A stretch of 40,315 bases of DNA from a virus (Duplodnaviria; Heunggongvirae; Uroviricota; Caudoviricetes), in the IMG/VR virus record IMGVR_UViG_2541047797_000007; one strand, 5' to 3'. Each line of letters starts with the position of its first letter. The stretch's first letter is position 1. Below are positions 3,159 through 32,759 of the stretch, piece after piece. The notes beneath the pieces were generated by a model that did not search any database, was not told the DNA's origin, and saw nothing but the letters and a program-made list of their open reading frames with translations. Made by a program: the position numbers and the translations under genes.

Positions 3159-5621
3159 TCAATTCCCTGTTAATTGCAAAACTTGCTCTTCCAGCTTTTT
3201 AACCCTGCGTCTCATCATCGCAGATTCCAGAATCAGAGCCTCTTCATAACGGATACCGTAACATTCACCAGCCTCGACGGCTTCGCGTACCAGAACCTTT
3301 GTCTGTATAAGTGGGTAAACTCCTGCAGAATGCTCTTCTTCCGTCACATCCCTGTATTCTGCCGGGGTCTCATTCCACTTGTCATAACAGATAAATGCCA
3401 GTCGTGACACATCTATGCCTTCATTCTGAAATACACTGATAACATGCTGCGCAACTGCACCAAAGTGCCATCTTGCTCCGTCTTTACCTTTCACTTCGAT
3501 CCTGTCAAGGTACTGGTATGAAACCCATTCCACTCTTTCCCATGCGTCCAGTATTTTCTCATCAATAACCTCTGGAGCAGTCTTGAAACGCGCATCGGAC
3601 AGCACCGTAAACGCTGACTGGGTAAATCCCCCCGACCATGCACGACCAGCCAACCCAAGAGAATAAGTATTCGTTGTCGATGGTGTCATGGCTGAATCAG
3701 AAAACTGTATATATTCTGAATTTCCAGTAGATATTCGAATATTTCCATTTATTAGCGACATAGTGCCTTTAGTATTATCACTATTGAATAATTTCAATTG
3801 CGAACTTATACCGCCTCCCACAGCCAGAGATACATCGCCTTCAGCAAGCATTCTGAATTTATCTGCAGAAACAAGCGTCTGGTTAGCAAGGTTAAAATAT
3901 TTAACCCACCATTCAAAACGCCCTGACATAGTCCCAACGTACTGACCAAGCGCAGGGACGTGAACAACATTGCTATTTGTAGTGCCGTCTATACTGGAAA
4001 TACCAGTCACCGCTGATGCAGAACTCAGAATATTATTTCTGTCACCCGGATGTTTAATTTCAACAAAGTTCCTGATACACCCTTCCTCGAAGGTAACCAC
4101 GCCGGAAGAACTATACATGGGGAATATTGACGCATAATTACTGCGTGCAGCATCTAAGAAACGAATGGTTGTAGATGTCTGCAGATCTCCTGATTCATTT
4201 TTCCCATCACACCCAGTCATTAGAATATTACTGGCAATATTATTATTTCCCTGAACGGTGACGCCGTGCGCCTGCTTTGCGTCCGATTCAGAGTAATCAA
4301 CCAGCACATCCGAAATCAGGTTACCAGTCCCCTTGCCAACAACTACTGCGGCGTATTTTGGGTTGTTAGCCATTACACTGCTAATGATATTATTCGTTGG
4401 GGCAGTTTCCGTCTCAGTTCCATTGTAAACAACGTGCTGACACTCTTCACCAATAACATTGCTGACAATGTTATATTTTGCTGCTGTTTTAAGTTCCACT
4501 GCACCAAACTGAGGATAATTTCTGGCTATCACACCATCAATTAGCGTATTTTGCGATGAATCAAAAAGCACACAACCTGCTTTTTTATTATTTGCGAACC
4601 CTAAATACTCTCCTCTTATATCTCTAACAATGTAACCTGACGGAATACCATTATCCGGATAAGCGATCAAGCTAAATCCTGGTCCTCGCGTATTTGTAAA
4701 TCTGATATTTTTAACCGATACATCATGGCCACCTGAAAATGACACCTGGTGTCCCTGCACACTATCATCTGATTTATTTCCCATAATTGTTAGCGTACTA
4801 AGCATGCCACCATCGGGCATGTTAAAAACCAGATGATTACCATCTCTGTCATACTGTTTTATCGTTCCCCCACCTGTTCCGTACAAGCCACAACGTGAAA
4901 GAGAAACTAAAGATGTATTGAATACCCCTTCCGGAACAAAAACACTGCTAAACGAATGTAATGATTTTGTAAAAGCATCCTTGTTATCATTTAAGATTCC
5001 ATTTTGAGCTCCAAAATCCTTAATGCTGACACCATCACGCATCTTATCCTGGAACGTTCTGTATACCGCTCCAGAACCATACTGAATAAACCAACCAAAA
5101 CCACCAATAACTCCGGCGATTGCAGCATCGACATAATTACGCATTGAGCGATTATTTACAGCGTCCTGCTCAAGTGATGGATCGGCAAGGTTAGATATTC
5201 TGTTTTGCTTTGCATCGTAATATTTTGCAAGCAAAGATGGTTTCATCAATGCACGTCTGAACCACCCAAAACATCGCTGGATCAGCATCGTCAGGTAGTC
5301 AAATGCATCCTCATGAACTTCGGGGAAAAATTTTCCCTGATTGCGAAGATCAGTCTCCTGCACCACATCAAGCACACGCTCTATCGTGATTCGCCAGCCA
5401 GCAGCAAGCGGCGACGGAAGAACCACTGCACCGCCACTATAAGTTCCCGCCCCTGTTACCGTATAACCAGCATCCAGCACTAGTTTTGTAACGTTACCGT
5501 TAAGGTCAGACACCTGAACAACCAGGTCGGATTTTTTGAAAATACGGAAGGTATACGGAAATGATGTCGTAACGCCGTTACCTGTGTATTCGTTGTGGTC
5601 AACTTCGGTTGAGACCGTCAT
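3159..5621 (-). CDS. Tailspike / tail fiber with conserved N-terminal particle-binding domain, central beta-helix-like region and C-terminal intramolecular chaperone (peptidase S74-like) domain
   Basis: N-terminus MTVSTEVDHNEYTGNGVTTSFPYTF is a conserved phage tailspike anchor motif; Gly/Asn/Ser/Thr-rich central region; C-terminal roughly 150 aa (..LSDARFKT...GARWHFGAVAQ..) resembles the auto-cleaving chaperone domain. SD GGAG upstream of the ATG at 5621. Confidence 0.85.
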   Translation of the reverse strand: MTVSTEVDHNEYTGNGVTTSFPYTFRIFKKSDLVVQVSDLNGNVTKLVLDAGYTVTGAGTYSGGAVVLPSPLAAGWRITIERVLDVVQETDLRNQGKFFPEVHEDAFDYLTMLIQRCFGWFRRALMKPSLLAKYYDAKQNRISNLADPSLEQDAVNNRSMRNYVDAAIAGVIGGFGWFIQYGSGAVYRTFQDKMRDGVSIKDFGAQNGILNDNKDAFTKSLHSFSSVFVPEGVFNTSLVSLSRCGLYGTGGGTIKQYDRDGNHLVFNMPDGGMLSTLTIMGNKSDDSVQGHQVSFSGGHDVSVKNIRFTNTRGPGFSLIAYPDNGIPSGYIVRDIRGEYLGFANNKKAGCVLFDSSQNTLIDGVIARNYPQFGAVELKTAAKYNIVSNVIGEECQHVVYNGTETETAPTNNIISSVMANNPKYAAVVVGKGTGNLISDVLVDYSESDAKQAHGVTVQGNNNIASNILMTGCDGKNESGDLQTSTTIRFLDAARSNYASIFPMYSSSGVVTFEEGCIRNFVEIKHPGDRNNILSSASAVTGISSIDGTTNSNVVHVPALGQYVGTMSGRFEWWVKYFNLANQTLVSADKFRMLAEGDVSLAVGGGISSQLKLFNSDNTKGTMSLINGNIRISTGNSEYIQFSDSAMTPSTTNTYSLGLAGRAWSGGFTQSAFTVLSDARFKTAPEVIDEKILDAWERVEWVSYQYLDRIEVKGKDGARWHFGAVAQHVISVFQNEGIDVSRLAFICYDKWNETPAEYRDVTEEEHSAGVYPLIQTKVLVREAVEAGECYGIRYEEALILESAMMRRRVKKLEEQVLQLTGN

Positions 5622-5725
5622 GTTAAATCTCCAGATAGTCGCAGCACCCGTTGCGCCGCATATCTGGTTATTCTATTACCTGAAAAACCACATATGGATA
5701 GAAAGAGTATGAATACGAATAGATA

Positions 5726-5740
5726 TTACCTTTCGGGTAA
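5726..5740. promoter_or_regulatory. Operator-like site TTACCTTTCGGGTAA (TTACC-N5-GGTAA family)
   Basis: Perfect inverted-repeat half-sites, intergenic between the tailspike start and the plus-strand moron island. Confidence 0.6.
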
Positions 5741-5817
5741 TTTGCAAAACGTGCTGGATAGCAAACAAATTATTTGATACTGTATAAATATACAGTTATT
5801 GCATGGAGAAGATTAAG

Positions 5818-6075
5818 ATGCAGCAGTATCACTATCCACTGGAAGAGGGATTTACCGAAAGGATTCACACGCCGGGAGGCGTCAGGTCACTGGTGGAGGG
5901 ATCGCACTTGATGAAATTACTCCGGGATCTCGATAAGGATGGATTTAATGTCGATGGCCCACTTGCCGAACTGACTGCACTGATTAACTACGTCACCAGC
6001 TCACAGATGTCTATGCAGGATCTGCAAACACATCTCGACTATTGTGCCGAACAATTACGAAAACAAACCAGATAA
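5818..6075 (+). CDS. Small protein homologous to the C-terminal domain of the downstream antirepressor
   Basis: Residues RIHTPGGVRSLVEGSHLMKLLRDL...ELTALINYV...QTHLDY align with Ant C-terminus [24 protein letters not shown]...ELTTMFCYI...QTHAEY. Start chosen at the second ATG (5818), which has SD GGAGAAG; the ORF track starts at 5803. Confidence 0.55.
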   Translation: MQQYHYPLEEGFTERIHTPGGVRSLVEGSHLMKLLRDLDKDGFNVDGPLAELTALINYVTSSQMSMQDLQTHLDYCAEQLRKQTR

Positions 6076-6106
6076 GGTTTGCAATTACCAAATGGAGTGC
6101 TTATAT

Positions 6107-6121
6107 TTACCTTTGCGGTAA
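6107..6121. promoter_or_regulatory. Operator-like site TTACCTTTGCGGTAA
   Basis: Perfect TTACC-N5-GGTAA, extended dyad ATTTACC...GGTAAAT, in the leader between the Ant-domain paralog and ant. Confidence 0.6.
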
Positions 6122-6210
6122 ATTTACATCGCACTCCTCTTGTGCCATAGTAATCGGGCACTGGCAAAATCCAGTGCCGGGATTGGTCTCCCGGATTACT
6201 AAGTGGCGCA

Positions 6211-6236
6211 TACCACGCCAGACGTGGTTTTTTTAT
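6211..6236 (+). terminator. Intrinsic terminator / attenuator in the ant leader
   Basis: Hairpin ACCACG-CCAGA-CGTGGT followed by TTTTTTTA; preceded by further stem-loops at 6140-6200. Confidence 0.5.
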
Positions 6237-6392
6237 GCGTATAGCACAGTCATGCCAGAATTATGGTGGGCTGAATGGGGGTCCGAAAGGACGCCGGTAC
6301 CACTTAGGCCGGTAAGACCAACTCCGTTCAGTTCACCACCATCTGATTGGTCTCAGCGGTGGTGATGTAATTCGCTAAGTGGAGACGCCATC

Positions 6393-7049
6393 ATGAACGC
6401 TCAACTCATCCCCGTATTCAACGGCACTATATCTAACGAAACAGCCCTACTTTGTAATGCCCGCGATCTGCACGCTTTTTTAGGTGTTAAAAAGGTGTTT
6501 GCAGCATGGATTACAAATCGCATATCAGAATACGAATTCATTGAAAATCAAGACTATATTTTGCTTTCCAATTTGGGAAAGCAAACATCTGGTAGAGGCG
6601 GCCACAACCGCAAAGAGTACCACCTCACCCTTGATACAGCCAAAGAGCTGGCGATGGTCGAGCGTAACGAAAAAGGTCGTCAGGTACGACGCTACTTCAT
6701 TGAATGCGAGAAACGTTTAAGACAACAAGAAACAAAAGTGGAGAAGGTCTTGTCAGGCTTCATGCCCGCCATTATGGAGGCGATCAAGCTGGAAGACAAA
6801 AAAGAATACAGTGCCCCGCTGAAGCCCGGCTACCGCAGCCTGATTCATTCGCCGTCTGGTGTTCTCGGCCTGACGGAGAACTCACTGCTGATGAATCTGC
6901 TGAACCAGTTACAGGAAGACGGGCACGACGTATCGGGCGCGGCGGCGGAACTGACCACCATGTTCTGCTACATCGTCGGTGTGAGCAAATGCCTGCGTGA
7001 TATCCAGACCCACGCGGAGTACATCAACGACAAGGCAGGGTTCTTCTGA
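6393..7049 (+). CDS. Phage antirepressor (AntA/AntB-type N-terminal domain)
   Basis: N-terminal region [36 protein letters not shown] matches the AntA antirepressor signature as I recall it; SD GGAG upstream; opposite strand to the surrounding late genes. Confidence 0.75.
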
Positions 7050-7174
7050 CAGAACGGCGGCACAGGGATGTGCCTTTAAATAATTCTGTACGATTGCAGA
7101 CAGGGGGGTGAATAGAGTACTATTACCTTACGGGTGATCCATAGCGATTAGGCACCGATACAGGAGGAGCCCAC

Positions 7175-7207
7175 ATGAGAAAATTTGACGAGTACGAAGG
7201 CGTTTAA
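7175..7207 (+). CDS. Possible 10-codon leader mini-ORF (MRKFDEYEGV) with strong SD
   Basis: AGGAGG at 7162-7167, 7 nt upstream of the ATG at 7175; lies between two operator-like sites upstream of the 211-aa gene. Speculative. Confidence 0.25.
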   Translation: MRKFDEYEGV

Positions 7208-7223
7208 CATTCGGATAGTTCAT

Positions 7224-7238
7224 TTACCCTAATGGTAA
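7224..7238. promoter_or_regulatory. Operator-like site TTACCCTAATGGTAA
   Basis: Perfect TTACC-N5-GGTAA, extended ATTTACC...GGTAAAT, 41 bp upstream of the 7279 start; a one-mismatch copy at 7124-7138. Confidence 0.6.
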
Positions 7239-7278
7239 ATCCCGCTTAAAGAAGCATCTATATATTATGAGGTGATGT

Positions 7279-7914
7279 ATGCCACAACAACTGCTGAATC
7301 CGGCAAAGGTAACTGAGGTTTTCGCTCATCTGAACGAAACTCCAGACAACCGCGCCCTGTATTCAGAGTTAGTGAACGGCAACGATGTCACATCTGATGT
7401 CAAAGGCGTTTCTCTGGCTCCTGGATACCGCGTTGTCCGTGTAGACGATCGTAAGAAAGGCGAGATTCCACAGGCGCACTTTGAACTGTCATTGATAAAT
7501 GACCTCACCGAAGAGGTAGTGTATTACAATCGTGTCATTATCCAGCCTGACAGCTATCTTAACTGCCGTCCTGTCACGCAGATATTGGTATGGAGAACCC
7601 AGAAGCCTAAGCATCGTGCTGTGCTTCATGATTTCGCCGGCATCATCTTCATGAACTACCTCTTGGAACGGTACGATATCATCGTGTCAGATCGCAACCA
7701 GACTCATGAAGGCATGTCGTTCTGGCAGGCTCGCATGTATGACGCACTGGAACTTGGCCTCCACCTCTATGGTTACGACATGATGACATGCGAGCTGATA
7801 GAGATGAATAACGAGGAAGAGCTTGAGAAAGGTGAAACCTGGTTGTGGGGTGATGCGGAAAACTTCCAAAACAGATTGGCCATAATTTCAAAGCATAAGC
7901 TGCCAATAAAATAG
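7279..7914 (+). CDS. Hypothetical protein (211 aa), moron with its own terminator
   Basis: SD GAGGTGA upstream; no motif I recognise; followed by an intrinsic terminator; embedded antisense in the late operon. Confidence 0.6.
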   Translation: MPQQLLNPAKVTEVFAHLNETPDNRALYSELVNGNDVTSDVKGVSLAPGYRVVRVDDRKKGEIPQAHFELSLINDLTEEVVYYNRVIIQPDSYLNCRPVTQILVWRTQKPKHRAVLHDFAGIIFMNYLLERYDIIVSDRNQTHEGMSFWQARMYDALELGLHLYGYDMMTCELIEMNNEEELEKGETWLWGDAENFQNRLAIISKHKLPIK

Positions 7915-7920
7915 TTCTTT

Positions 7921-7945
7921 AAGCCCGCGACGCGGGCTTTTTTGT
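7921..7945 (+). terminator. Rho-independent terminator after the 211-aa gene
   Basis: GC-rich hairpin GCCCG-CGACG-CGGGC followed by TTTTTTG. Confidence 0.75.
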
Positions 7946-7981
7946 GTCTGCGGATTCCCGCCCTGGCGGCGGTGGCATTCG

Positions 7982-8007
7982 TTAAAAACAAGGCCGCGAA
8001 AGCGGCC
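7982..8007 (-). terminator. Rho-independent terminator (minus strand) directly downstream of palindrome copy 1
   Basis: On the minus strand: GGCCGC-TTTC-GCGGCC hairpin followed by TTGTTTTTAAC; convergent with the plus-strand terminator at 7921. Confidence 0.7.
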
Positions 8008-8008
8008 T

Positions 8009-8020
8009 GTGACATGTCAC
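8009..8020. repeat. Perfect 12-bp palindrome GTGACATGTCAC, copy 1 of 3
   Basis: Exact match read from the sequence; overlaps the stop of the 8017..8313 gene and abuts the terminator hairpin. Confidence 0.9.
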
Positions 8021-8313
8021 GCTCTTTTTCTGAATGATAGCCATTCGAAAAATGATGACATTCCACCGCAGACAATAGCAAAGATGATCCCACCAAAGAA
8101 GAGAAGGCCAGCCTGCCACCACTCCCACCGCCATACATCCACAGCGCCAACCATACCAACAATCGCTCCAACAAATGGAATATAGCTCACGATGAAAGCA
8201 ATGGGGGCTGCAATTATCCAGTGCAATCCCCACCATGATTCAAGCCCAGCCATAATTGCTGCCAACTGAAAAAGACCAACGACGATATAAACAATGAATC
8301 CTATAGCTTGCAT
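8017..8313 (-). CDS. Small integral membrane protein (98 aa), possible superinfection-exclusion/immunity-type moron
   Basis: Three hydrophobic helices, Trp-rich; sits alone between the ejection-protein genes and the antirepressor island. Function is inference only. Confidence 0.55.
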   Translation of the reverse strand: MQAIGFIVYIVVGLFQLAAIMAGLESWWGLHWIIAAPIAFIVSYIPFVGAIVGMVGAVDVWRWEWWQAGLLFFGGIIFAIVCGGMSSFFEWLSFRKRA

Positions 8314-8508
8314 GTAGTCACCTATTTACCCAGTAAAAATCAGAGGCCTCCCCTCAATAAGGCTTGCAACAAGAACTATTCCCTGCACAACAAAGATGAA
8401 CCAGCAAATAGCTTGAGTCTGAGGGTTAAGAAAATATTTGTAGCGGTCAATAAATAACAACCCACCAAAAATTATCACACTCAAAATAATTAAAAACACA
8501 ACACTTCC

Positions 8509-10983
8509 TTATTGCGGAGTGACATCCTGAGGTCGCCACCAGTATGTCTGGTTAAACTCTTTCTTCGAACGTTGCTCCATTTTACGCAAATAGCCTGGTG
8601 AAAAATACTCCTGCATCTGGTTAAAAATCATGTGATCGAGAGCCGCCTTCAAGTACCAGAGATTCGCACCTGGCATCAAACCTTTCCCCAGCTTCACCAA
8701 ATCACCACCAGTCTGCTCACTCTTCCCTTCCACAGCATTTAACGGTATGCCCTGAGCAATCTTCACTACGTCATCAACCAGACCAGCTACCGGGCCAAGC
8801 ATCGACGCCAGCGCGCCGCTTCCGTACCTAGTGTGATCTGACAATAAAAAGTCACCGTAAAGGCCAAGACCACCACCTTTCAGTAGAGCACCAAGCCAAA
8901 ATTTAGCAGCATCTTCTCCTGTCATCTCGCGAGGATTACGACCAGACGCAAGGTCGTTAAGTTGCTGCGACAAAGCGCCAAGAATGGTCGTACTGGCAAT
9001 AAACGTCGCAATATATGCCGCACGCCCACCAGCAGACGGCATACCCATAGCGCGTGACCAGTGACGCATAACCACCGAGATAGGGAACGATTTAAACAGG
9101 AAAACACTTCTCGTTAATTCACCTTTCCATGTTCCACGCTGAATACCAGAACCGGTTATCAGTTGCTCACGTGCTCCCGGTGTAATAACAGCCATATCAA
9201 CTTCTTCAGTTACGGCACCGAGCAGTTTACGCATTGCCTCAAATTTCACGCGTTCAGGCTCACCAAGATGTTTAACTGCTGAATCAGGGATACGCATAAT
9301 GCTTTCCGGTGTCAGCATCGTATTATTGCCGTTCCCCCAGTCCTCCTGTTGCGCCAGCTTCCATACGCTCCAGTCTGTGTCAGTAATCCCTTTGCTTTTC
9401 AGGATACGAAAATCAGAATCATCGAGGCTACGAAGGTCTGGTGTCCGTGACACTACTTCTCCCAGGCTTCCCATCATGGTTACGCCATAGGCGCGCTTGT
9501 GCGCATCTGACCATGCTGTAAGCCCACTGGCACGCATTACCGCCGTTGCAGCCCAACGAGACACAGACGGCCCCATATTATCCATCGCCCAGCGGTTAAC
9601 GCTGCCAAGTAGAGATTCCATCGCCAGACCAGCGCGGCGCGCCCGCGCAAGTTCTGTACGGTTCGTTGGGTCCATAGCTTCAAGCTGGTTGCGGAATAAC
9701 TGGTTCATTGGAAGGTTGGTAACCTTCGCAGACAGATACATGGTTCCAAGATCAGAGAACGATGACAGCAACGCGGATCCGAGTCTGCTGGCAACCAGCC
9801 AGTTGCGGATATTGTCAGACCATCGCGCGATGTGCGGATTCGCTACAGGCTGTGTCTTTCCGGAAATAAAGTTGTACAGATTCTCTGTGTTGTTCGCCAG
9901 CCGCTCGACTTTACCGGTTTTACTCGGGTTAGCTGTTGCCGTTTCTGCCTTAACCTGATCAAGAAGGGAGCGGAAAACATGATCGGGGTTTGGACCATAT
10001 GTTTCCACCAGAGCAATATCTTTACTGATACCTTCCAGGTGACCGACCATGATTTCCCATAGAGAGCGATCGCCATAAAGTTGTTGATATTGGAGATAGG
10101 AATCAGCATCTTTGAAATGTATCTGTCGTGATGCATTACCACGGTTAGCACGTGCGCCGGAAATTCGCATTCCGGTATCAGTAAGCTTATTCAGCCCACC
10201 AGTAGCGATCGTGTTATAAGCCTCTCCAAGAAATGCAGACAACTCGGCATCGTTCATCAGTTGTCCATCGGCTCGGGTATAATATTTGCGATCCAGCTTA
10301 CCTATAACATCGTTAACCCACTTATCCTTTGATACCGCCCCAACCTTTTCCATAGAATGATGTTGAGGGATCCCCCAGTTTTCGAGATAGCCAATGTCCC
10401 CACCAGCATCATTAAACCGGCGGCGCAGCAGCTCTGTAACTTCTCTCCACGCCTTAGCACCTTTTCTTGCTTTAGCATTGCCAGTATTTTGCCCCCGCAT
10501 TTCATATACCAGGTCACGTACGCCCGCTTCATCTTCAAACAGACCAAAAAAGCGAGGATCAACTGCTTCGAATGCCTCCTGCAATTGACTCAATGCATAA
10601 TCACGGGTGGCTTTTGTTCTGGATTCAACAGAGAGGAAATTAGATTTACCGTCTGCATTAAAAGCTATAGTACGGTTAAGAGCGCCAAGTTTCCCATCAG
10701 CCCCTTGATAGCTATTGATAAATTTATCCAATCTCTGACGCGCGGCTATAGTGAGAGCCACACGACGTTTCTTTAATGCCGCTTCTCGCTGTAATTCTTC
10801 AGATGCCAATTGTGCTGCTCGATATAGCCGCTCTGATTCGGAAAGTTGTCGCCACGACATCGGGTCATCACGAGCAATGGAGCGCATATTTCGATAAATG
10901 CGGTCTTCAATGTTCTGTATTTCTCGCGCCGTTAACATGCGCTGCGCCGCCTGCTGAACCGCCTGTATACATTCCTGTCTCAT
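8509..10983 (-). CDS. Large internal virion / ejection protein (824 aa)
   Basis: Last of three large consecutive, translationally coupled genes downstream of the nozzle genes; the position resembles podovirus internal core/ejection proteins. No specific motif recognised. Confidence 0.55.
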   Translation of the reverse strand: MRQECIQAVQQAAQRMLTAREIQNIEDRIYRNMRSIARDDPMSWRQLSESERLYRAAQLASEELQREAALKKRRVALTIAARQRLDKFINSYQGADGKLGALNRTIAFNADGKSNFLSVESRTKATRDYALSQLQEAFEAVDPRFFGLFEDEAGVRDLVYEMRGQNTGNAKARKGAKAWREVTELLRRRFNDAGGDIGYLENWGIPQHHSMEKVGAVSKDKWVNDVIGKLDRKYYTRADGQLMNDAELSAFLGEAYNTIATGGLNKLTDTGMRISGARANRGNASRQIHFKDADSYLQYQQLYGDRSLWEIMVGHLEGISKDIALVETYGPNPDHVFRSLLDQVKAETATANPSKTGKVERLANNTENLYNFISGKTQPVANPHIARWSDNIRNWLVASRLGSALLSSFSDLGTMYLSAKVTNLPMNQLFRNQLEAMDPTNRTELARARRAGLAMESLLGSVNRWAMDNMGPSVSRWAATAVMRASGLTAWSDAHKRAYGVTMMGSLGEVVSRTPDLRSLDDSDFRILKSKGITDTDWSVWKLAQQEDWGNGNNTMLTPESIMRIPDSAVKHLGEPERVKFEAMRKLLGAVTEEVDMAVITPGAREQLITGSGIQRGTWKGELTRSVFLFKSFPISVVMRHWSRAMGMPSAGGRAAYIATFIASTTILGALSQQLNDLASGRNPREMTGEDAAKFWLGALLKGGGLGLYGDFLLSDHTRYGSGALASMLGPVAGLVDDVVKIAQGIPLNAVEGKSEQTGGDLVKLGKGLMPGANLWYLKAALDHMIFNQMQEYFSPGYLRKMEQRSKKEFNQTYWWRPQDVTPQ

Positions 10984-10988
10984 TTAAT

Positions 10989-12791
10989 TTAACCTCTCAA
11001 GAAACACGCCACAGCGACATCAAACAGGCTGGAATCCTGTATTGCCTGCTCACTTTCCCTGTTCGCTTCATCCAGTACTTCACGCGCACTGCGCGATTGT
11101 GGATTACCATCATCATCCAGCACGGTGATTATCATGTCAGGTGATTCAAGCAGCGAGTCTTCAGCTATACGCAGATCAATATCTCCTGCCGGATCTGCCA
11201 TCATTTTTTGTTCTGTCTGTTGCAATATCTTACCGGGCTCAAAAGGAGCTACTTCGTCTGGCGTCCTGACCTCTGCTGTTTTATAGAATGAAACAGCCTG
11301 AGCATTAAGTTCACTTTCTGCCTGCTGTCGTCGTGCCAGTTCTGCTCGAGCTTCAAAAAACTGACCGCCAGGCTCATGCGGTGCCAACGCGTTACGGGAA
11401 AATTCCAGGCGCTCTTGTGCCTGCCGGATTCGTTGGTCAATATCGCGAAGTCTGACCTGTTTATCTGATCGAGCACGAGACAAAGCTTTACCGCTACCGG
11501 TTGGCTCTTCTGCAAGAATTTGTGCGCGCTGTTCAGTGAGATTTTCAATAATTCGTTGGCTATTAGCGATTTCAGACTGGTAAACCTGTCTATCGCCACG
11601 CGGCAAAAGCTGCGCGGCCTGTTCTTCAAGCAACCGATTTTCTATAGCGCGCGCCGTTACTCCATCATCTACAGATGACAGAGCCTCATTAACTGCCTGA
11701 GACAACAGACTCTTGCGCCCAGGAATTTCACTGAAAGATGCAGACTCAACAATGCTGGCAACGTCTACAGGTCTCCCCTGGCTAACATCAGACATAGCTT
11801 TTCGCAGAGCCTGAATGTGAGAATTGCGCGAAAGCACGTTGATCGGCACGCCGGGCGCAATATCAATTTCAGCATGATGAGCGGCATTCGCCGCCAGTGC
11901 AGCATCAACATCAACTGGTGAAAAATTTGGTGCGCTTGTAGACTCGCCGCGAGAGTTCATAAATCTGCCGACACCACCAAACGCCACCCCAAGAACAGCA
12001 TCAATAGCAATTGCCTGTCGATCCAACACATCATACTGGTTAGCCATTTCGCTATAGCCACCATCACGAAGCGTTTTTGCAGTAAGCCCACGCTGTGCCA
12101 TACCGAACGCAATATTTGTACCTGCGGCATAGGCAATATCTGGCGTTGCACGTACTGCTGTTGCTGCGGCGCGTCGCACTGAACTTTCACCCGTCCGCGC
12201 AAGCTGGGCCGCCACACCTTCCGCCAGCGCACCACCAGCACGTAACCCGAGGCTCATAGGGATCAGTGTTCCGGCACCAGCAGTAATACCCTGCACTAAT
12301 CCCGCTTCCTGCGCCGTCCTGAAATCAACACCCTGTGCTGTCAGCCGTTCAAACTCAGAAAAACCCTGTAGAGAAGTTACCGCCGCAGCACCTCCGACCG
12401 GACCACCGAGCGTTGTACCGACAACAGCCTGCCCTCCCATATCGAACAACCCATAAAGGACCTGCCCGGCGGTTCCGGTTGTCGCGGCATCAGGCGTCAG
12501 CCGCTTAACCTGCTGCTCTGCTAGTTTTCTCTGCTCGGCAATGTATGAAACTGAAGTGTCATTGAGCGAGGTGTTTTCGTTAACAAACTGAGCAATCGGG
12601 GATACGATTTTATCCATCCCTGCCCATAGCAACTGATCTGGCTTTGCCACCAGCCCGGAGTACAAACCAGACAATGCCGCTCCTACAGCATTGTCGAAAA
12701 AACCAACATCGCTGTTAAAGCCAGCTGGATTTGATGCTGCTTCGTCAAGCTGCTGATTCTGGTTTACTGGATTAAGGCCAAAGTAACTCAT
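10989..12791 (-). CDS. Internal virion / ejection protein (600 aa)
   Basis: Ala/Gly-rich protein; start overlaps the stop of the upstream gene (ATGA). Confidence 0.5.
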   Translation of the reverse strand: MSYFGLNPVNQNQQLDEAASNPAGFNSDVGFFDNAVGAALSGLYSGLVAKPDQLLWAGMDKIVSPIAQFVNENTSLNDTSVSYIAEQRKLAEQQVKRLTPDAATTGTAGQVLYGLFDMGGQAVVGTTLGGPVGGAAAVTSLQGFSEFERLTAQGVDFRTAQEAGLVQGITAGAGTLIPMSLGLRAGGALAEGVAAQLARTGESSVRRAAATAVRATPDIAYAAGTNIAFGMAQRGLTAKTLRDGGYSEMANQYDVLDRQAIAIDAVLGVAFGGVGRFMNSRGESTSAPNFSPVDVDAALAANAAHHAEIDIAPGVPINVLSRNSHIQALRKAMSDVSQGRPVDVASIVESASFSEIPGRKSLLSQAVNEALSSVDDGVTARAIENRLLEEQAAQLLPRGDRQVYQSEIANSQRIIENLTEQRAQILAEEPTGSGKALSRARSDKQVRLRDIDQRIRQAQERLEFSRNALAPHEPGGQFFEARAELARRQQAESELNAQAVSFYKTAEVRTPDEVAPFEPGKILQQTEQKMMADPAGDIDLRIAEDSLLESPDMIITVLDDDGNPQSRSAREVLDEANRESEQAIQDSSLFDVAVACFLRG

Positions 12792-15301
12792 TGCGGAATA
12801 TCTCCGGAGAATCTCTGACGCTTCTGTGTCAGATTAAGAACAACGGGAGAACCATCATCTTTCAGCAGATAACCAGTACCAAGTTTCACCAGGTACTGAC
12901 TATCGCCGTAACTTTGCAAACCATACTGACCAGGCGGTGTTTTTATCCCGGAGCCGACAACTTGTTCATTCCAAGCCTGATTAACCTGCTTATCGAATTG
13001 CTCCGCAGACATTCCCCACGGCAAAAGGACATTCCCCATTCCGTTATAGTCATGCACGCCACCTGTAGCTACGTTAACAGCCTGTTTCCAGACATCATTG
13101 TCAATTTCGCCTGATACCACGCCTTTTTTCGCCATCACACCAGCGTAATAATCCTTTGCGATCTCGTATGCCATTGATGCCCCCTGAGCGTCACCAGCAA
13201 ATGCATCCTTCACCATGTCAGAAAACTCAAGGCGAAGATCAGCATCTTTAGGCATCGGAATACCTTTCGCATCATCAGTACCTTTACGAGCCGCCGCGCC
13301 AGCAAGAATTGTCTGCGCAGCGGTTTCAGGAGACACGGAAACATCCGGATTAAACCAGTTTTTTTCTGCCAAAATACCACCTGGCTTATCCATCAGTATC
13401 CCGGCAACGGCAGCAGATGGAGCGTTGGCACTGATCTGCTGTAGTGCTGACATATACACCTGCCCACCACCAGTGCTCTGCCTGATGGTATCGAGATATG
13501 CTGCCTGTTGGGAAACTGGAGCATCACGAAAGAAAACACCGATCTGATTGGCCTCGTCTTTGGAAAAGAACGTCAGTGGAGTGCCATATGACTTAGCAAG
13601 GTCACTGACCTGAGCGGCACGCAAGGCAACGCTCTGTCCAAAGTTATCCTTATTGCTCATGTCGATAGGCTTTGCCTGTCCGGCGGCAAGAGAGAACTGC
13701 ACAGGATCCGATTGCCGCTGCTTTATCACCTGATTTGCAGCCGAAACAACGTTGTCATAAAGAGCTGCGCGTGCCGCATACCCCTCCCCTGTCTCACCAG
13801 TATCCGGGCGTAATTGCTCAACATATGCTGTAATGCTGCTTGTCGGCATGTTGCGGAAAGAGCCTATATACTGTCCGGCGATTTGCGTATTTCTGAACTC
13901 GGTATATCGCAGGTTTCCTTCTCTGACTCCATAAGCTGCAATAAAATCAGCCTCACCAGGTGGGTTAGGAAATTCAACGCCACGCATATACGCAGATGTC
14001 GCATCGCGAACTTGGCTGTCAATCATCGTTTTATATTCAGCCTGCTGCTGCCGACGCAGTTGATCCGCCTGTCGCATAAAACTTGCCTGCGCCTCAGGAG
14101 ATGCCGCATCGAATGCTGCATTACCGGTATAGCGTTTGGTGTTGGTTGGAATTGTTGATAAACCAAGTGCTGCACTGACACCAGCAGTTAACTGCTGATC
14201 ACTGTATGGCTGGCTACCGTTCTCATGATGGATAATGGCTGCACAAAGCGCCTTCAGGGTATCAGGATTAGATGCATCGAGAGGCTCATCAGCAGAAACG
14301 CCAAGTTGTTCGCACACTGCTTTGATATACGACATAGTGTCATTTTTATCAGTAGGCGGTGCCCAGCGATTAATTATCTCGCTGACGGTATCGATACCCT
14401 GCCGCTGATACGACATCAGGTTACGCCCTAATGCACGAATCCCGTGCTCAGGTGTTTCGAATTTAGCAAATCGACCATCATCACCGGTCTGGCCTACCCA
14501 CGGATTAGTTTTGCTGTATTCGAGATTTCCTGGGTTATTGTTGCGTATGCCACGGGCACGCTCGGAAGAGTCATTATCTGCTACAGCACGGCGAGCTCCA
14601 GCAGCAGTATCACTTAACTCGCCATTACTTTGGATGAATGCGGTCGCATTGTTTGCCGACCACTGGGACAATGCGGCATCAGCAACCTTCTCTTTAAACT
14701 CGATTTTCTTGGCCTGTATTTGCTCGTCGCTCCAGCCATGCGCAACGCCGTAATCCTCAATTTGCTGGAAAGTTTGCTTATTAGCCAATACGTATGCGGC
14801 GTTGTCGCCATACAATGCTGCGGCATTTTTACCATTGTTCAGCAGCGTCGCCTGAAACTGGCCTTCTTCGTAGGCATTTATTTGCCCTATCTCGTGCCGC
14901 CCGGCCTGCGTAGTGAACTGAATGCGCTGCTGCTGCGCCTGCTGCATGAAAGCATTACGAGCCTGTTCATCCGGCAGCGACATAGCCAGTTGCTCGACCT
15001 GGGCATCAAACTGCTGCGTATACTCCTGACCTTTTCCAATAGCATTTTTCCCTTTCAGGTTAAGCAATCCTGTTTCAGGATTATTCAGCAGATCACTGCT
15101 TATCTGACTGAGGTTAAGAGATGCCTCCTGAGCCAGAGCGATATTGGCACGCTGTTTTGCCTGCCCCAAAACATCAATTGCCTCTGTCCCTGCCCGAACA
15201 AAAGCATCACTAATACCTGGCTGAGAAAACGTCTGCAAGCCTGCTGACTGAACTCCACGACTCTCAACCTGACGTCCGGATACTGTTGGTACGACTGGCA
15301 T
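12788..15301 (-). CDS. Large internal virion protein, possibly with a cell-wall-degrading region
   Basis: Start taken at the internal Met whose ATG overlaps the upstream stop (TAATG) rather than the track start at 15376. Contains segment RNNNPGNLEY...HGIRALGRNL; a cell-wall hydrolase role is a weak inference. Confidence 0.5.
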   Translation of the reverse strand: MPVVPTVSGRQVESRGVQSAGLQTFSQPGISDAFVRAGTEAIDVLGQAKQRANIALAQEASLNLSQISSDLLNNPETGLLNLKGKNAIGKGQEYTQQFDAQVEQLAMSLPDEQARNAFMQQAQQQRIQFTTQAGRHEIGQINAYEEGQFQATLLNNGKNAAALYGDNAAYVLANKQTFQQIEDYGVAHGWSDEQIQAKKIEFKEKVADAALSQWSANNATAFIQSNGELSDTAAGARRAVADNDSSERARGIRNNNPGNLEYSKTNPWVGQTGDDGRFAKFETPEHGIRALGRNLMSYQRQGIDTVSEIINRWAPPTDKNDTMSYIKAVCEQLGVSADEPLDASNPDTLKALCAAIIHHENGSQPYSDQQLTAGVSAALGLSTIPTNTKRYTGNAAFDAASPEAQASFMRQADQLRRQQQAEYKTMIDSQVRDATSAYMRGVEFPNPPGEADFIAAYGVREGNLRYTEFRNTQIAGQYIGSFRNMPTSSITAYVEQLRPDTGETGEGYAARAALYDNVVSAANQVIKQRQSDPVQFSLAAGQAKPIDMSNKDNFGQSVALRAAQVSDLAKSYGTPLTFFSKDEANQIGVFFRDAPVSQQAAYLDTIRQSTGGGQVYMSALQQISANAPSAAVAGILMDKPGGILAEKNWFNPDVSVSPETAAQTILAGAAARKGTDDAKGIPMPKDADLRLEFSDMVKDAFAGDAQGASMAYEIAKDYYAGVMAKKGVVSGEIDNDVWKQAVNVATGGVHDYNGMGNVLLPWGMSAEQFDKQVNQAWNEQVVGSGIKTPPGQYGLQSYGDSQYLVKLGTGYLLKDDGSPVVLNLTQKRQRFSGDIPQ

Positions 15302-15846
15302 TATAATCCTCCGGGTAATCTGGTTCCTGCTGCCGCCCCGATTGGCGCAGGGGTGCTTTGAGTAAACGGACTCCACGTCCCACCAAACATCTGGTACGCA
15401 CCGTATGCCTTCAGAGGCGCAGTGAGCAATGTTGTTGCTGCTCCCACATTCCCCTGTTTACGGGCTGAACTGGCTTCTGCTTTATAGTTGGCAGCCTGAA
15501 CCTGATAACCGTAAGCCTCGCGTTGCGCGTTATTCACCGTCGTTAGCGAATCAAGAGCGCCAAACTGAGCAGTGTCACCAAATATATCCAGCGCGTTACC
15601 TGTAGATAAATCAGCGCCGGTCGCCCCCATTGTCGCCGCCTGTGTACCAAGCCGCTGTCGGGTCTCTCTGCGCCGTTGCTCAGCTTCAGCGTTACCTCTG
15701 TTTATTGCATCATTTGCCTGAGCTGTGGCTATATCTGCGTTCGCTTCTGCAACCTTCGAGGCATACTTTCCCTGTTGGTACTGGGTGTATGCCTGAATGC
15801 CACTCATGGCGAGCATTGCGCCACCAGCAATAACCGGATCGCACAT
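15301..15846 (-). CDS. Internal virion protein (181 aa, Ala/Gly-rich)
   Basis: Coupled within the structural operon; low-complexity A/G/Q-rich sequence as seen in podovirus core proteins. Confidence 0.45.
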   Translation of the reverse strand: MCDPVIAGGAMLAMSGIQAYTQYQQGKYASKVAEANADIATAQANDAINRGNAEAEQRRRETRQRLGTQAATMGATGADLSTGNALDIFGDTAQFGALDSLTTVNNAQREAYGYQVQAANYKAEASSARKQGNVGAATTLLTAPLKAYGAYQMFGGTWSPFTQSTPAPIGAAAGTRLPGGL

Positions 15847-32528: not shown

Positions 32529-32759
32529 TCATGAGTAGAAGAAGTATGCCAGTTCTGCTTTTGAGCGCAGCCATTGTCTTGTTTTACAGGCTTTAAAAAG
32601 CCCATTCATCAATACCTTACCTGGCATTTTGCGCTTACCTGTTAAGTGAGTCTGGATATAGTGACTCGTCGTTCCGGCTTCCTGTGCGAAGGCTTCACGC
32701 TCATCCGGAGTAAGTGCAAGCCAGTGCTTTTTGAAATCGAAATGTCCGTTATCGCTCAT
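32529..32759 (-). CDS. Cro-like small HTH regulator (first gene of the early replication operon)
   Basis: 76 aa; segment LTPDEREAFAQEAGTTSHYIQTHLTG resembles an HTH; divergent from the CI-like gene across an operator-rich region. Confidence 0.55.
   Translation of the reverse strand: MSDNGHFDFKKHWLALTPDEREAFAQEAGTTSHYIQTHLTGKRKMPGKVLMNGLFKACKTRQWLRSKAELAYFFYS

Follow-up and report, generated by a model that had tools for sequence, protein, structure and literature searches.

The anti-CRISPR protein AcrVA5 is a GNAT (acyl-coenzyme A (CoA) N-acyltransferase) that acetylates Cas12a. Mom of phage Mu and Rac of phage phiKMV are single soluble phage proteins with a GNAT fold that act in host or immune conflict, the former through a DNA modification that serves anti-restriction and the latter through the inactivation of the RNA polymerase alpha subunit (PMC7261163, PMC7552054). 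In the immI regions of P22 and P1 (c4-icd-ant), which lie between ejection-type and tailspike genes, ant follows C4 and isrK-like RNAs and accessory genes are found alongside. Morons, such as bor and lom of lambda or old and tin of P2, are self-contained units with their own terminator that vary among near-identical phages, and those of the classical type are expressed while the prophage is repressed. We have analysed a stretch of 40,315 nt (IMG/VR record IMGVR_UViG_2541047797_000007, hereafter the window) that DNA and protein comparisons place as an Escherichia coli prophage of the Uetakevirus group (epsilon15/phiV10/phiv142-3-like), and we focus here on its gene at 7279-7914, which encodes a protein of 211 amino acids (aa). 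An earlier note, made from the sequence alone, had pointed to this gene as an uncharacterised accessory function, and it had indeed found a real and reasonably promising one. Comparison of related prophages supports well that the gene is exchangeable cargo in a slot bracketed by promoter-operator elements downstream of ant, and its product is confidently predicted to have a GNAT-like fold. What is new here is this divergent GNAT-fold family and a moron-like cassette that appears to be gated by the prophage repressor; otherwise, the locus is of a known kind. The features on which the argument depends are the following:

7094-7123, plus strand: candidate sigma-70 promoter of the cargo slot, with -35 TTGCAG (7094-7099), an 18-nt spacer and -10 TACTAT (7118-7123)
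7123-7137: operator O1, TTACCTTACGGGTGA, with one mismatch
7138-7220, plus strand: leader segment with the Shine-Dalgarno (SD) sequence AGGAGG (7162-7167) and a mini open reading frame (mini-ORF), found only in the variants with GNAT-like and DUF4760 cargo
7175 (ATG) to 7207 (TAA), plus strand: the mini-ORF, 10 codons, MRKFDEYEGV
7224-7238: operator O2, TTACCCTAATGGTAA, without mismatch; located at the 5' edge of the exchanged cassette
7279-7914, plus strand: the 211-aa gene, with an ATG start and the SD sequence GAGGTGA (7269-7275); WP_001136300.1, phrog_1349
7921-7939 and a T-run (to 7945), plus strand: intrinsic cargo terminator, AAGCCCGCGACGCGGGCTT, kept in the DUF4760 variant
7947-7985, plus strand: relic consisting of the last 12 codons and the stop of a 53-aa gene (WP_000708858.1, phrog_14503)
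8008-7991 and a T-run, minus strand: convergent terminator of the late strand, kept in all variants
8017-8313, minus strand: 98-aa gene with about three transmembrane-like segments; phrog_3075, WP_001147903.1
32914-33498, plus strand: gene of a 194-aa protein with a C-terminal helix-turn-helix domain (HTH_3), the presumed repressor

The ORF at 7279-7914 is a real gene, because it has 94 close homologues in a word-index search (the named sources are in Enterobacterales), at least 923 cluster representatives at 50% identity in an exhaustive profile search (E <= 1e-3), nearly all of them single-domain proteins of about 200 aa, and a confident AlphaFold2 model. Its surroundings are as the earlier note had listed them: the ORF, the palindromes, the mini-ORF with its SD sequence, the facing terminators and the convergent 98-aa gene are all present in the sequence.

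The boundaries of the slot were defined by aligning four E. coli prophages, which are identical over two stretches, one that extends from the ant stop as far as 7220 and one that starts at 7919. In the interval, a DUF4760 gene replaces the 211-aa gene in other prophages, and the swapped segment corresponds to about 7221-7918. The leader segment is present in 52 genomes, invariant in all of them, and homology ends at 7220 every time. Further variants keep only the ant stop, a small hairpin, the TACTAT hexamer and a perfect operator equivalent to O1 (TTACCTTAAAGGTAA or TTACCCCAAAGGTAA) and then diverge into other cargo, coding for 55 + 146 + 53 aa or for 72 + 125 + 53 aa. Since nothing else is kept before the divergence, the promoter-operator pair would be the conserved backbone element of the slot. 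When the alternative cargos, including the DUF4760 protein, were searched for a shared theme, none of them was assignable to a function. The 211-aa cassette occurs in 13 of 5426 complete E. coli genomes, and the right flank with the 98-aa gene in about 534; this distribution, together with the accessory positions that homologues occupy in other phages, bears out the view of an accessory gene of unknown function carried as a hot-spot cassette. Like a moron, the cassette combines a promoter (here a candidate one) and a terminator with presence or absence among close relatives. The relic downstream of it belongs to a gene for a secreted or membrane, signal-peptide-like peptide (phrog_14503, 'membrane associated protein') of which other slot variants have a complete copy (L013 3322-3483 and L062 3204-3365), and the alignment indicates that the rest of this gene was lost here through the arrival of the cassette or a later deletion. 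No compositional anomaly was found in the cassette, whose GC content (0.45-0.50) is much like that of the flanks, and composition was thus discarded as a sign of recent transfer.

The gene had also been credited with a leader and a terminator of its own. Both are present, but the mini-ORF, the upstream operator and, judging from one variant, the terminator belong to the backbone slot. A functional mini-ORF leader finds no backing, as the mini-ORF is unchanged in 52 of 52 carriers and the leader RNA (7128-7290) has a folding energy no better than that of shuffled sequences (z 0.68), a value on which we also rejected a riboswitch or attenuator. The idea that the mini-ORF is a vestige of the start of an allele of the Phi05/LLS type, described below, gave an unconvincing alignment. 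A terminator or hairpin also follows the gene in every other context examined, i.e., in phage LLS, Dickeya, phage Phi05_2388 B and Photorhabdus.

With at most one mismatch allowed, the window contains 14 copies of the palindrome TTACC-N5-GGTAA where 0.62 would be expected, a number that was never reached in 100 shuffled sequences. They include those at 5726, 6107, 7123 (O1), 7224 (O2), 24569, 27207/27225, 30451/30513, 32796/32844 and 33556/33618, and the sites other than O1 and O2 are mostly grouped in pairs, 18-62 bp from each other, in intergenic stretches or where genes start. Of these, two or three separate a cro-like gene (32529-32759, minus strand) from the 194-aa gene, and another two surround TTGACA-17-CATAAT, a promoter that closely follows the latter. 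The half-site of O1, TCACC/GGTGA, is also employed at the immunity region, and the palindrome as a whole recurs both there and at candidate early-promoter regions. The repressor of phage ZX5, identical to that of phiV10, has a C-terminal helix-turn-helix, and its overexpression cuts lysis-gene transcripts by >99.9% (PMC9782041); the likeness of the 194-aa protein to it consists in the shared description of a C-terminal helix-turn-helix. From the excess of sites, their clustering at the immunity region and the behaviour of the ZX5 repressor, we infer that the palindrome is the operator of the main prophage repressor. Mnt and Arc were not found among the ORFs examined in the window. As a separate observation, one pair of palindromes is found where the small-terminase ORF begins, which may point to direct control of the late operon by the repressor.

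The identity of the slot promoter is deduced from its position and its conservation. The TACTAT hexamer fused to TTACC is kept in every slot variant, in phage LLS and in Photorhabdus, and the layout parallels that of the ant promoter, TTGCAA-17-TATATT/TTACC. As the operator abuts the candidate -10, just as at the ant promoter, the 211-aa gene would be expressed only when the repressor is absent, and we consider it quite probable that it is off in the lysogen and on without repressor. In this arrangement, the repressor at the operator abutting the -10 would shut the gene off in the quiescent lysogen, and the gene would be transcribed together with ant when the phage enters a naive cell or the prophage is induced. 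The sequence thus suggests no expression from the repressed prophage, unlike the classical moron. This speaks against the lysogenic conversion or lysogen protection that had been proposed for the gene, since such functions need expression in the lysogen. The second site, O2, is probably a remnant of the cassette's own promoter-operator element, given that in homologous cassettes the palindrome lies 35-100 nt upstream of the start codon.

The 211-aa protein (24.6 kDa, pI 5.3) is acidic and soluble, without any transmembrane segment. Its sole family match is phrog_1349, a PHROGs family of unknown function, and it has no Pfam or NCBIfam match. At the sequence level, the earlier statement that the protein has no recognisable motif therefore stands, and the remote-homology searches that it had called for are empty beyond phrog_1349; the statement fails at the level of structure. 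AlphaFold2, run with a 33-sequence alignment, yielded a model (pLDDT 86, pTM 0.82) in which the GNAT core (beta1-alpha1-alpha2-beta2-4-alpha3-beta5-alpha4-beta6-7) is present, extended by an N-terminal two-helix segment and a C-terminal strand-helix-strand. A Foldseek search of BFVD with the model retrieved uncharacterised phage proteins of 185-200 aa with TM-scores of about 0.6-0.8, one of them from Atu_ph07, a jumbo phage of Agrobacterium, and then viral proteins annotated as acetyltransferases. The nearest structures are the C-terminal acetyl-CoA-binding domain of ICL2/Rv1916, NatD/Naa40 and HAT1. Across 113 members with about 25-30% identity, N24, Y82, Q101, W105, R106, D138, G145, W149, Y164 and W190 are 84-99% conserved, and a conserved D138-x-x-Q-T-x-x-G145-x-x-F-W149 lies between beta5 and alpha4. 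A further difference from known GNATs is the conserved Met-Pro start, which is kept, start-aligned, in 78% of the 113 members, with a Pro codon that varies synonymously among homologues. An N-terminal proline could thus be functional; this is uncertain, given that the Phi05_2388 B and LLS-type alleles have an in-frame upstream ATG with a strong SD sequence that is a possible true start. On the predicted structure, we give slightly better than even chances to the product being an acyl-CoA-dependent transferase.

The homologues provide an independent view of the cassette. The core TA..ATTACC-N5-GGT.A is found upstream of family members in Dickeya, in the IMG/VR contigs L035 and L045, in Phi05_2388 B and in LLS, and it is the sole invariant block of an alignment of six contexts. 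Dickeya Uetakevirus-like prophages have TTGCAT-17-TAGGAT/TTACCCATAAGGTAA upstream of the homologue, and L035 has TTTGCA-17-TAGAAT/TTACCAATAAGGTAA. Phage LLS, which is lambdoid, encodes its homologue (gp57) behind Rz/Rz1, at the end of the genome, and the operator of this gene is the single perfect site in the 42.9 kb. The corresponding slot of the Uetakevirus Phi05_2388 B is occupied by a paralogue with only 30% identity to the window protein (hhalign probability of 100% to the family), as read after hand correction of one frameshift in an unverified record. Homologues with 41-45% identity sit next to the portal gene in the cos-proximal locus of P2-like prophages, a known defence hot spot (Rousset et al. 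2022, PMC9122126). Upstream of one of these, at a distance of 2.5 kb, is a PARIS-like pair, AAA_15/AAA_21 + DUF4435 (L047 1-1889, from a GC-rich host), and three of the homologues adjoin an orphan D12 Dam methylase. Others adjoin integrases, precede a tape-measure gene or directly follow an ORF6N antirepressor gene. No conserved partner gene was found across the Uetakevirus slot, the P2-like hot spot, and the integrase-adjacent, tail-cluster and chromosomal contexts.

The chromosomal copies are found in Photorhabdus and Xenorhabdus, where the family is concentrated; several genomes hold two copies. A solitary copy was seen in 13 Photorhabdus species, each time at the same chromosomal locus or close to it and adjoining a CxxCxxCC gene, and the full arrangement of FAA-hydrolase, CxxCxxCC, family and 206-aa genes is present in 10 of the 13. 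The candidate promoter there, TTGATT-17-TACTAT, is fused to TTACC-N4-GGTAA, with a spacer one base shorter. These solitary copies are under strong purifying selection, with a median pairwise ratio of nonsynonymous to synonymous substitutions (dN/dS) of 0.117 and dS up to 0.9. Several Xenorhabdus species have a solitary copy between the flavodoxin/DUF3461 genes and dapD. Intact solitary copies in both genera indicate a single-gene function that bacteria keep even without the phage and that is presumably not toxic when expressed. Besides, a second perfect palindrome, TTGAAC-N5-GTTCAA, precedes Xenorhabdus and Photorhabdus copies, with one site at each locus, both in prophages and at some chromosomal loci, about 85-230 nt from the homologue, and it overlaps the likely -35 where the sequence was read (L004-L007, L036, L037, L039, L042, L043, L064, L068, L070, L073, L074, L092, L094, L096, L102, L103, L108 and L112).

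The explanation that we prefer is that of a self-contained, horizontally exchanged and repressor-gated cassette for an acyl-transfer function in conflict, which, taken as a whole, we propose tentatively and at somewhat less than an even chance. Once expressed, the product would transfer an acyl group from acyl-CoA to a protein or small-molecule target, and it would thereby serve to block competing phages or other mobile elements (exclusion or defence). This role is the weakest step of the proposal, and we infer it from three observations that jointly favour a conflict function: the family recurs in accessory and defence hot spots, alleles of a single slot diverge deeply, and bacteria have domesticated the gene. 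Such a function would pay both the lytic phage and a bacterium that expresses the gene constitutively: it would explain why the gene recurs in accessory and defence hot spots, and the benefit to the bacterium would explain the intact solitary copies of Photorhabdus. A role in phage conflict is thus a reasonable candidate from the sequence data, and the exclusion of competing phages or mobile elements is the conflict role that fits best. The most far-reaching version of the proposal would be a new and widespread family of phage-borne acyltransferases that decides phage-phage or phage-host conflicts by acylating a target, travels on a portable operator-fused promoter, so that it is deployed solely without repressor, and has been repeatedly domesticated by Photorhabdus and Xenorhabdus as a constitutive chromosomal gene; in that full form, we regard it as doubtful.

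Several results weigh against the preferred explanation. The link with GNATs comes purely from the predicted structure. A Pfam scan of the 113 members gave no meaningful match, sequence and profile searches of the PDB with the protein and its family were empty, and hhalign comparisons of the family profile were null both with RimI (using an approximate RimI sequence) and with Mu Mom (probability 0.2%). The core fold is thus shared with the GNAT superfamily in the prediction, with no detectable similarity to its sequence profiles (Pfam Acetyltransf_*, NCBIfam). The BFVD match to Mom has a TM-score of 0.32, so that homology to Mom is not indicated, and the likeness to Rac and AcrVA5 is one of described fold and role. 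The canonical Q/R-x-x-G-x-G/A CoA-binding loop is not recognisable; the beta4-alpha3 loop reads W105-R-T-Q-K-P-K-H-R, without a Gly pair, in a register assigned without superposition. With no recognisable loop of this kind, and with an acetyl-CoA sensor domain devoid of catalysis as the top structural match, the protein may be a ligand binder rather than an enzyme. The slot promoter matches the consensus at 7 of 12 positions and was missed by the promoter scan. A gene that is silent in the lysogen would give it no protection, and exclusion would then need action during the lytic cycle or an expression that is leaky or dependent on a trigger. Sequence alone cannot separate defence from counter-defence. 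PADLOC-DB 2.0 gave zero matches for the 211-aa, 98-aa and DUF4760 proteins and for the neighbouring 57-aa product, and the literature on phrog_1349, the accession, DUF4760 and prophage GNAT defence contained nothing on the family, the prophage-defence screen of Brenes & Laub 2025 being outside the coverage.

Among the alternatives, the likeliest is an acyltransferase that is produced early, under control of the repressor, and modifies a host protein to the advantage of the phage, for example an immune effector or the transcription machinery. The operator-fused promoter beside ant predicts precisely such an early or derepressed expression, the predicted GNAT-like fold and the deep divergence of the alleles in the same slot are consistent with it, and phage GNATs with such roles exist, as exemplified by the action of Rac on RNA polymerase alpha (PMC7552054). 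Moreover, the orphan Dam methylases that adjoin the P2-like homologues are counter-defence genes, and structural relatives occur in the large phages Atu_ph07 and BCSR5, the latter of Burkholderia. The timing agrees with such a counter-defence or host modification; the domesticated copies do not, because solitary genes under purifying selection at housekeeping loci of 13 Photorhabdus and several Xenorhabdus species are hard to explain in this way; the LLS cassette, at a classical lysogen-expressed position after Rz/Rz1 and without a cognate operator network, is a further difficulty, and we judge this alternative rather unlikely. A GNAT toxin of the TacT/AtaT type, or an abortive-infection killer, that is silenced by transcriptional repression is very improbable. 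In contrast to the TacAT, AtaRT and KacAT type II systems, no ribbon-helix-helix (RHH)/DUF1778 antitoxin gene is conserved upstream of the family: the ORF upstream of the window gene is the 10-codon backbone mini-ORF, which is absent from other contexts, and the small upstream ORFs of distant homologues are unrelated and of low complexity. As the antitoxin was not found, we rejected the toxin-antitoxin reading; in addition, the gene is intact and subject to purifying selection in LLS and Photorhabdus, whose copies have an altered operator or no cognate repressor, which suggests a protein that does no harm when expressed.

The bias of the family towards Photorhabdus and Xenorhabdus would fit an enzyme that N-acylates a small molecule, either a toxic metabolite (an antibiotic, a peptide-nucleotide or a compound of the aminoglycoside type) or a nucleotide-sugar precursor of a surface polysaccharide, so that the carrier gains resistance or an altered surface. 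Many structural neighbours of the model are GNATs that act on small molecules, among them AAC(2')-Ia, MccE, the streptothricin, phosphinothricin and arsinothricin acetyltransferases, GNA1 and PseH. The genomes in which the family concentrates, often with several copies each, are those of Photorhabdus and Xenorhabdus, genera known for the synthesis of natural products; the chromosomal copies are under purifying selection, and Uetakeviruses are known for O-antigen conversion. Detoxification does not fit the repressor gating, and we consider this possibility improbable. Still less probable is a GNAT-like sensor or binder that acts by sequestration or allostery, like the C-terminal domain of ICL2, since the conserved D138, Y82, Y164, R106, Q101 and N24 resemble an active site more than a binding surface and no partner that it could regulate, whether fused or conserved, was found. 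Finally, the earlier note had considered a system formed by the 211-aa protein and the convergent 98-aa membrane protein, which would be active in the lysogen. The two genes are adjacent, their terminators face each other, and the analogous position of P22 holds sieA. However, the genes assort independently. The 98-aa gene lies on the late strand behind an 824-aa gene, its identical product WP_001147903.1 accompanies both the 211-aa and the DUF4760 cargo, its flank is much more widespread than the cassette (the counts given above), strain IAI39 pairs the 211-aa gene with a different membrane gene, and elsewhere the 211-aa family occurs without the 98-aa gene. This distribution made us reject the partnership, which we regard as extremely improbable, and by the same comparisons the 98-aa gene is a backbone neighbour.

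The preferred explanation, that of a repressor-gated conflict cassette, has to be seen in the frame of the prophage region that hosts it. The minus strand of the window carries lysis genes, the tailspike gene (3159-5621) and very large internal or ejection-type genes (8509-15376), whose Dickeya counterpart carries an SLT domain. The plus-strand island of about 5700-7945 sits between the tailspike and ejection-type blocks, exactly where the earlier note had placed it, and it is an immI-like region of control and cargo with three operator-marked units:

Unit a, from 5726: operator at 5726 and a perfect LexA box, TACTGTATAAATATACAGT (5778-5796), ahead of a 90-aa gene (5803-6075)
Unit b, 6079-6121: ant promoter TTGCAA-17-TATATT, detected by the promoter scan, whose last T is the first base of the operator at 6107
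6158-6234: isrK-like Hfq-binding RNA (Rfam, 67.7 bits, above the gathering score)
6259-6343: C4 antisense RNA (Rfam, 61.2 bits, above the gathering score)
6393-7049, plus strand: ant, encoding AntA (phrog_377)
Unit c, from the ant stop: small hairpin and TTGCAG-18-TACTAT (7094-7123), whose last T is the first base of the operator at 7123-7137

The LexA box of unit a, for which the chance expectation is none, and the 42% identity of the 90-aa product to the C-terminal part of Ant (residues 128-210) suggest a Tum-like, SOS-controlled small antirepressor. A Dickeya relative (L008, about 6520-6560) shows the same arrangement with a LexA-like box. The isrK-like and C4 RNAs are located between the operator-overlapped ant promoter and ant, and by their Rfam matches they constitute a P1 immI-like layer of RNA control in a Uetakevirus. 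The window differs from the immI regions of P22 and P1 in that control apparently runs through the operator of the main repressor and a LexA-boxed Tum-like small antirepressor, and in that the cargo has its own operator-fused candidate promoter.

Two side observations concern the neighbourhood. A second variable slot exists between the 90-aa gene and ant (L002 1074-2073, L014 1184-1912, L015 682-1410); it corresponds to about 6075-6393 of the window, where protein-coding cargo is lacking. The occupants of this slot in other E. coli prophages lie on the minus strand and are a YafO-family toxin with a 167-aa partner, or alternatively a 242-aa protein with weak endonuclease VII/Lar-like matches at its C-terminus. 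On the other side, a 57-aa ORF (8326-8499, minus strand) with two hydrophobic segments lies between the 824-aa and 98-aa genes; it is not annotated in RefSeq relatives and contains a terminator-like hairpin (8363-8346) inside its 3' end, so we treat it as a candidate gene only.

Should the 211-aa protein turn out to catalyse acyl transfer and to act in conflict, it would add an enzymatic single-gene mechanism to the list of phage GNATs formed by Mom, Rac and AcrVA5, and it would provide a function for roughly a thousand 50%-identity clusters without Pfam, NCBIfam, PADLOC or PHROG annotation. The domesticated copies of Photorhabdus and Xenorhabdus offer a tractable genetic system for finding the target. 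In addition, the slot itself, with its promoter-operator and nearby terminator, is present in hundreds of E. coli prophages and could thus become a place to mine for accessory functions that would be expressed upon derepression and not in lysogeny.

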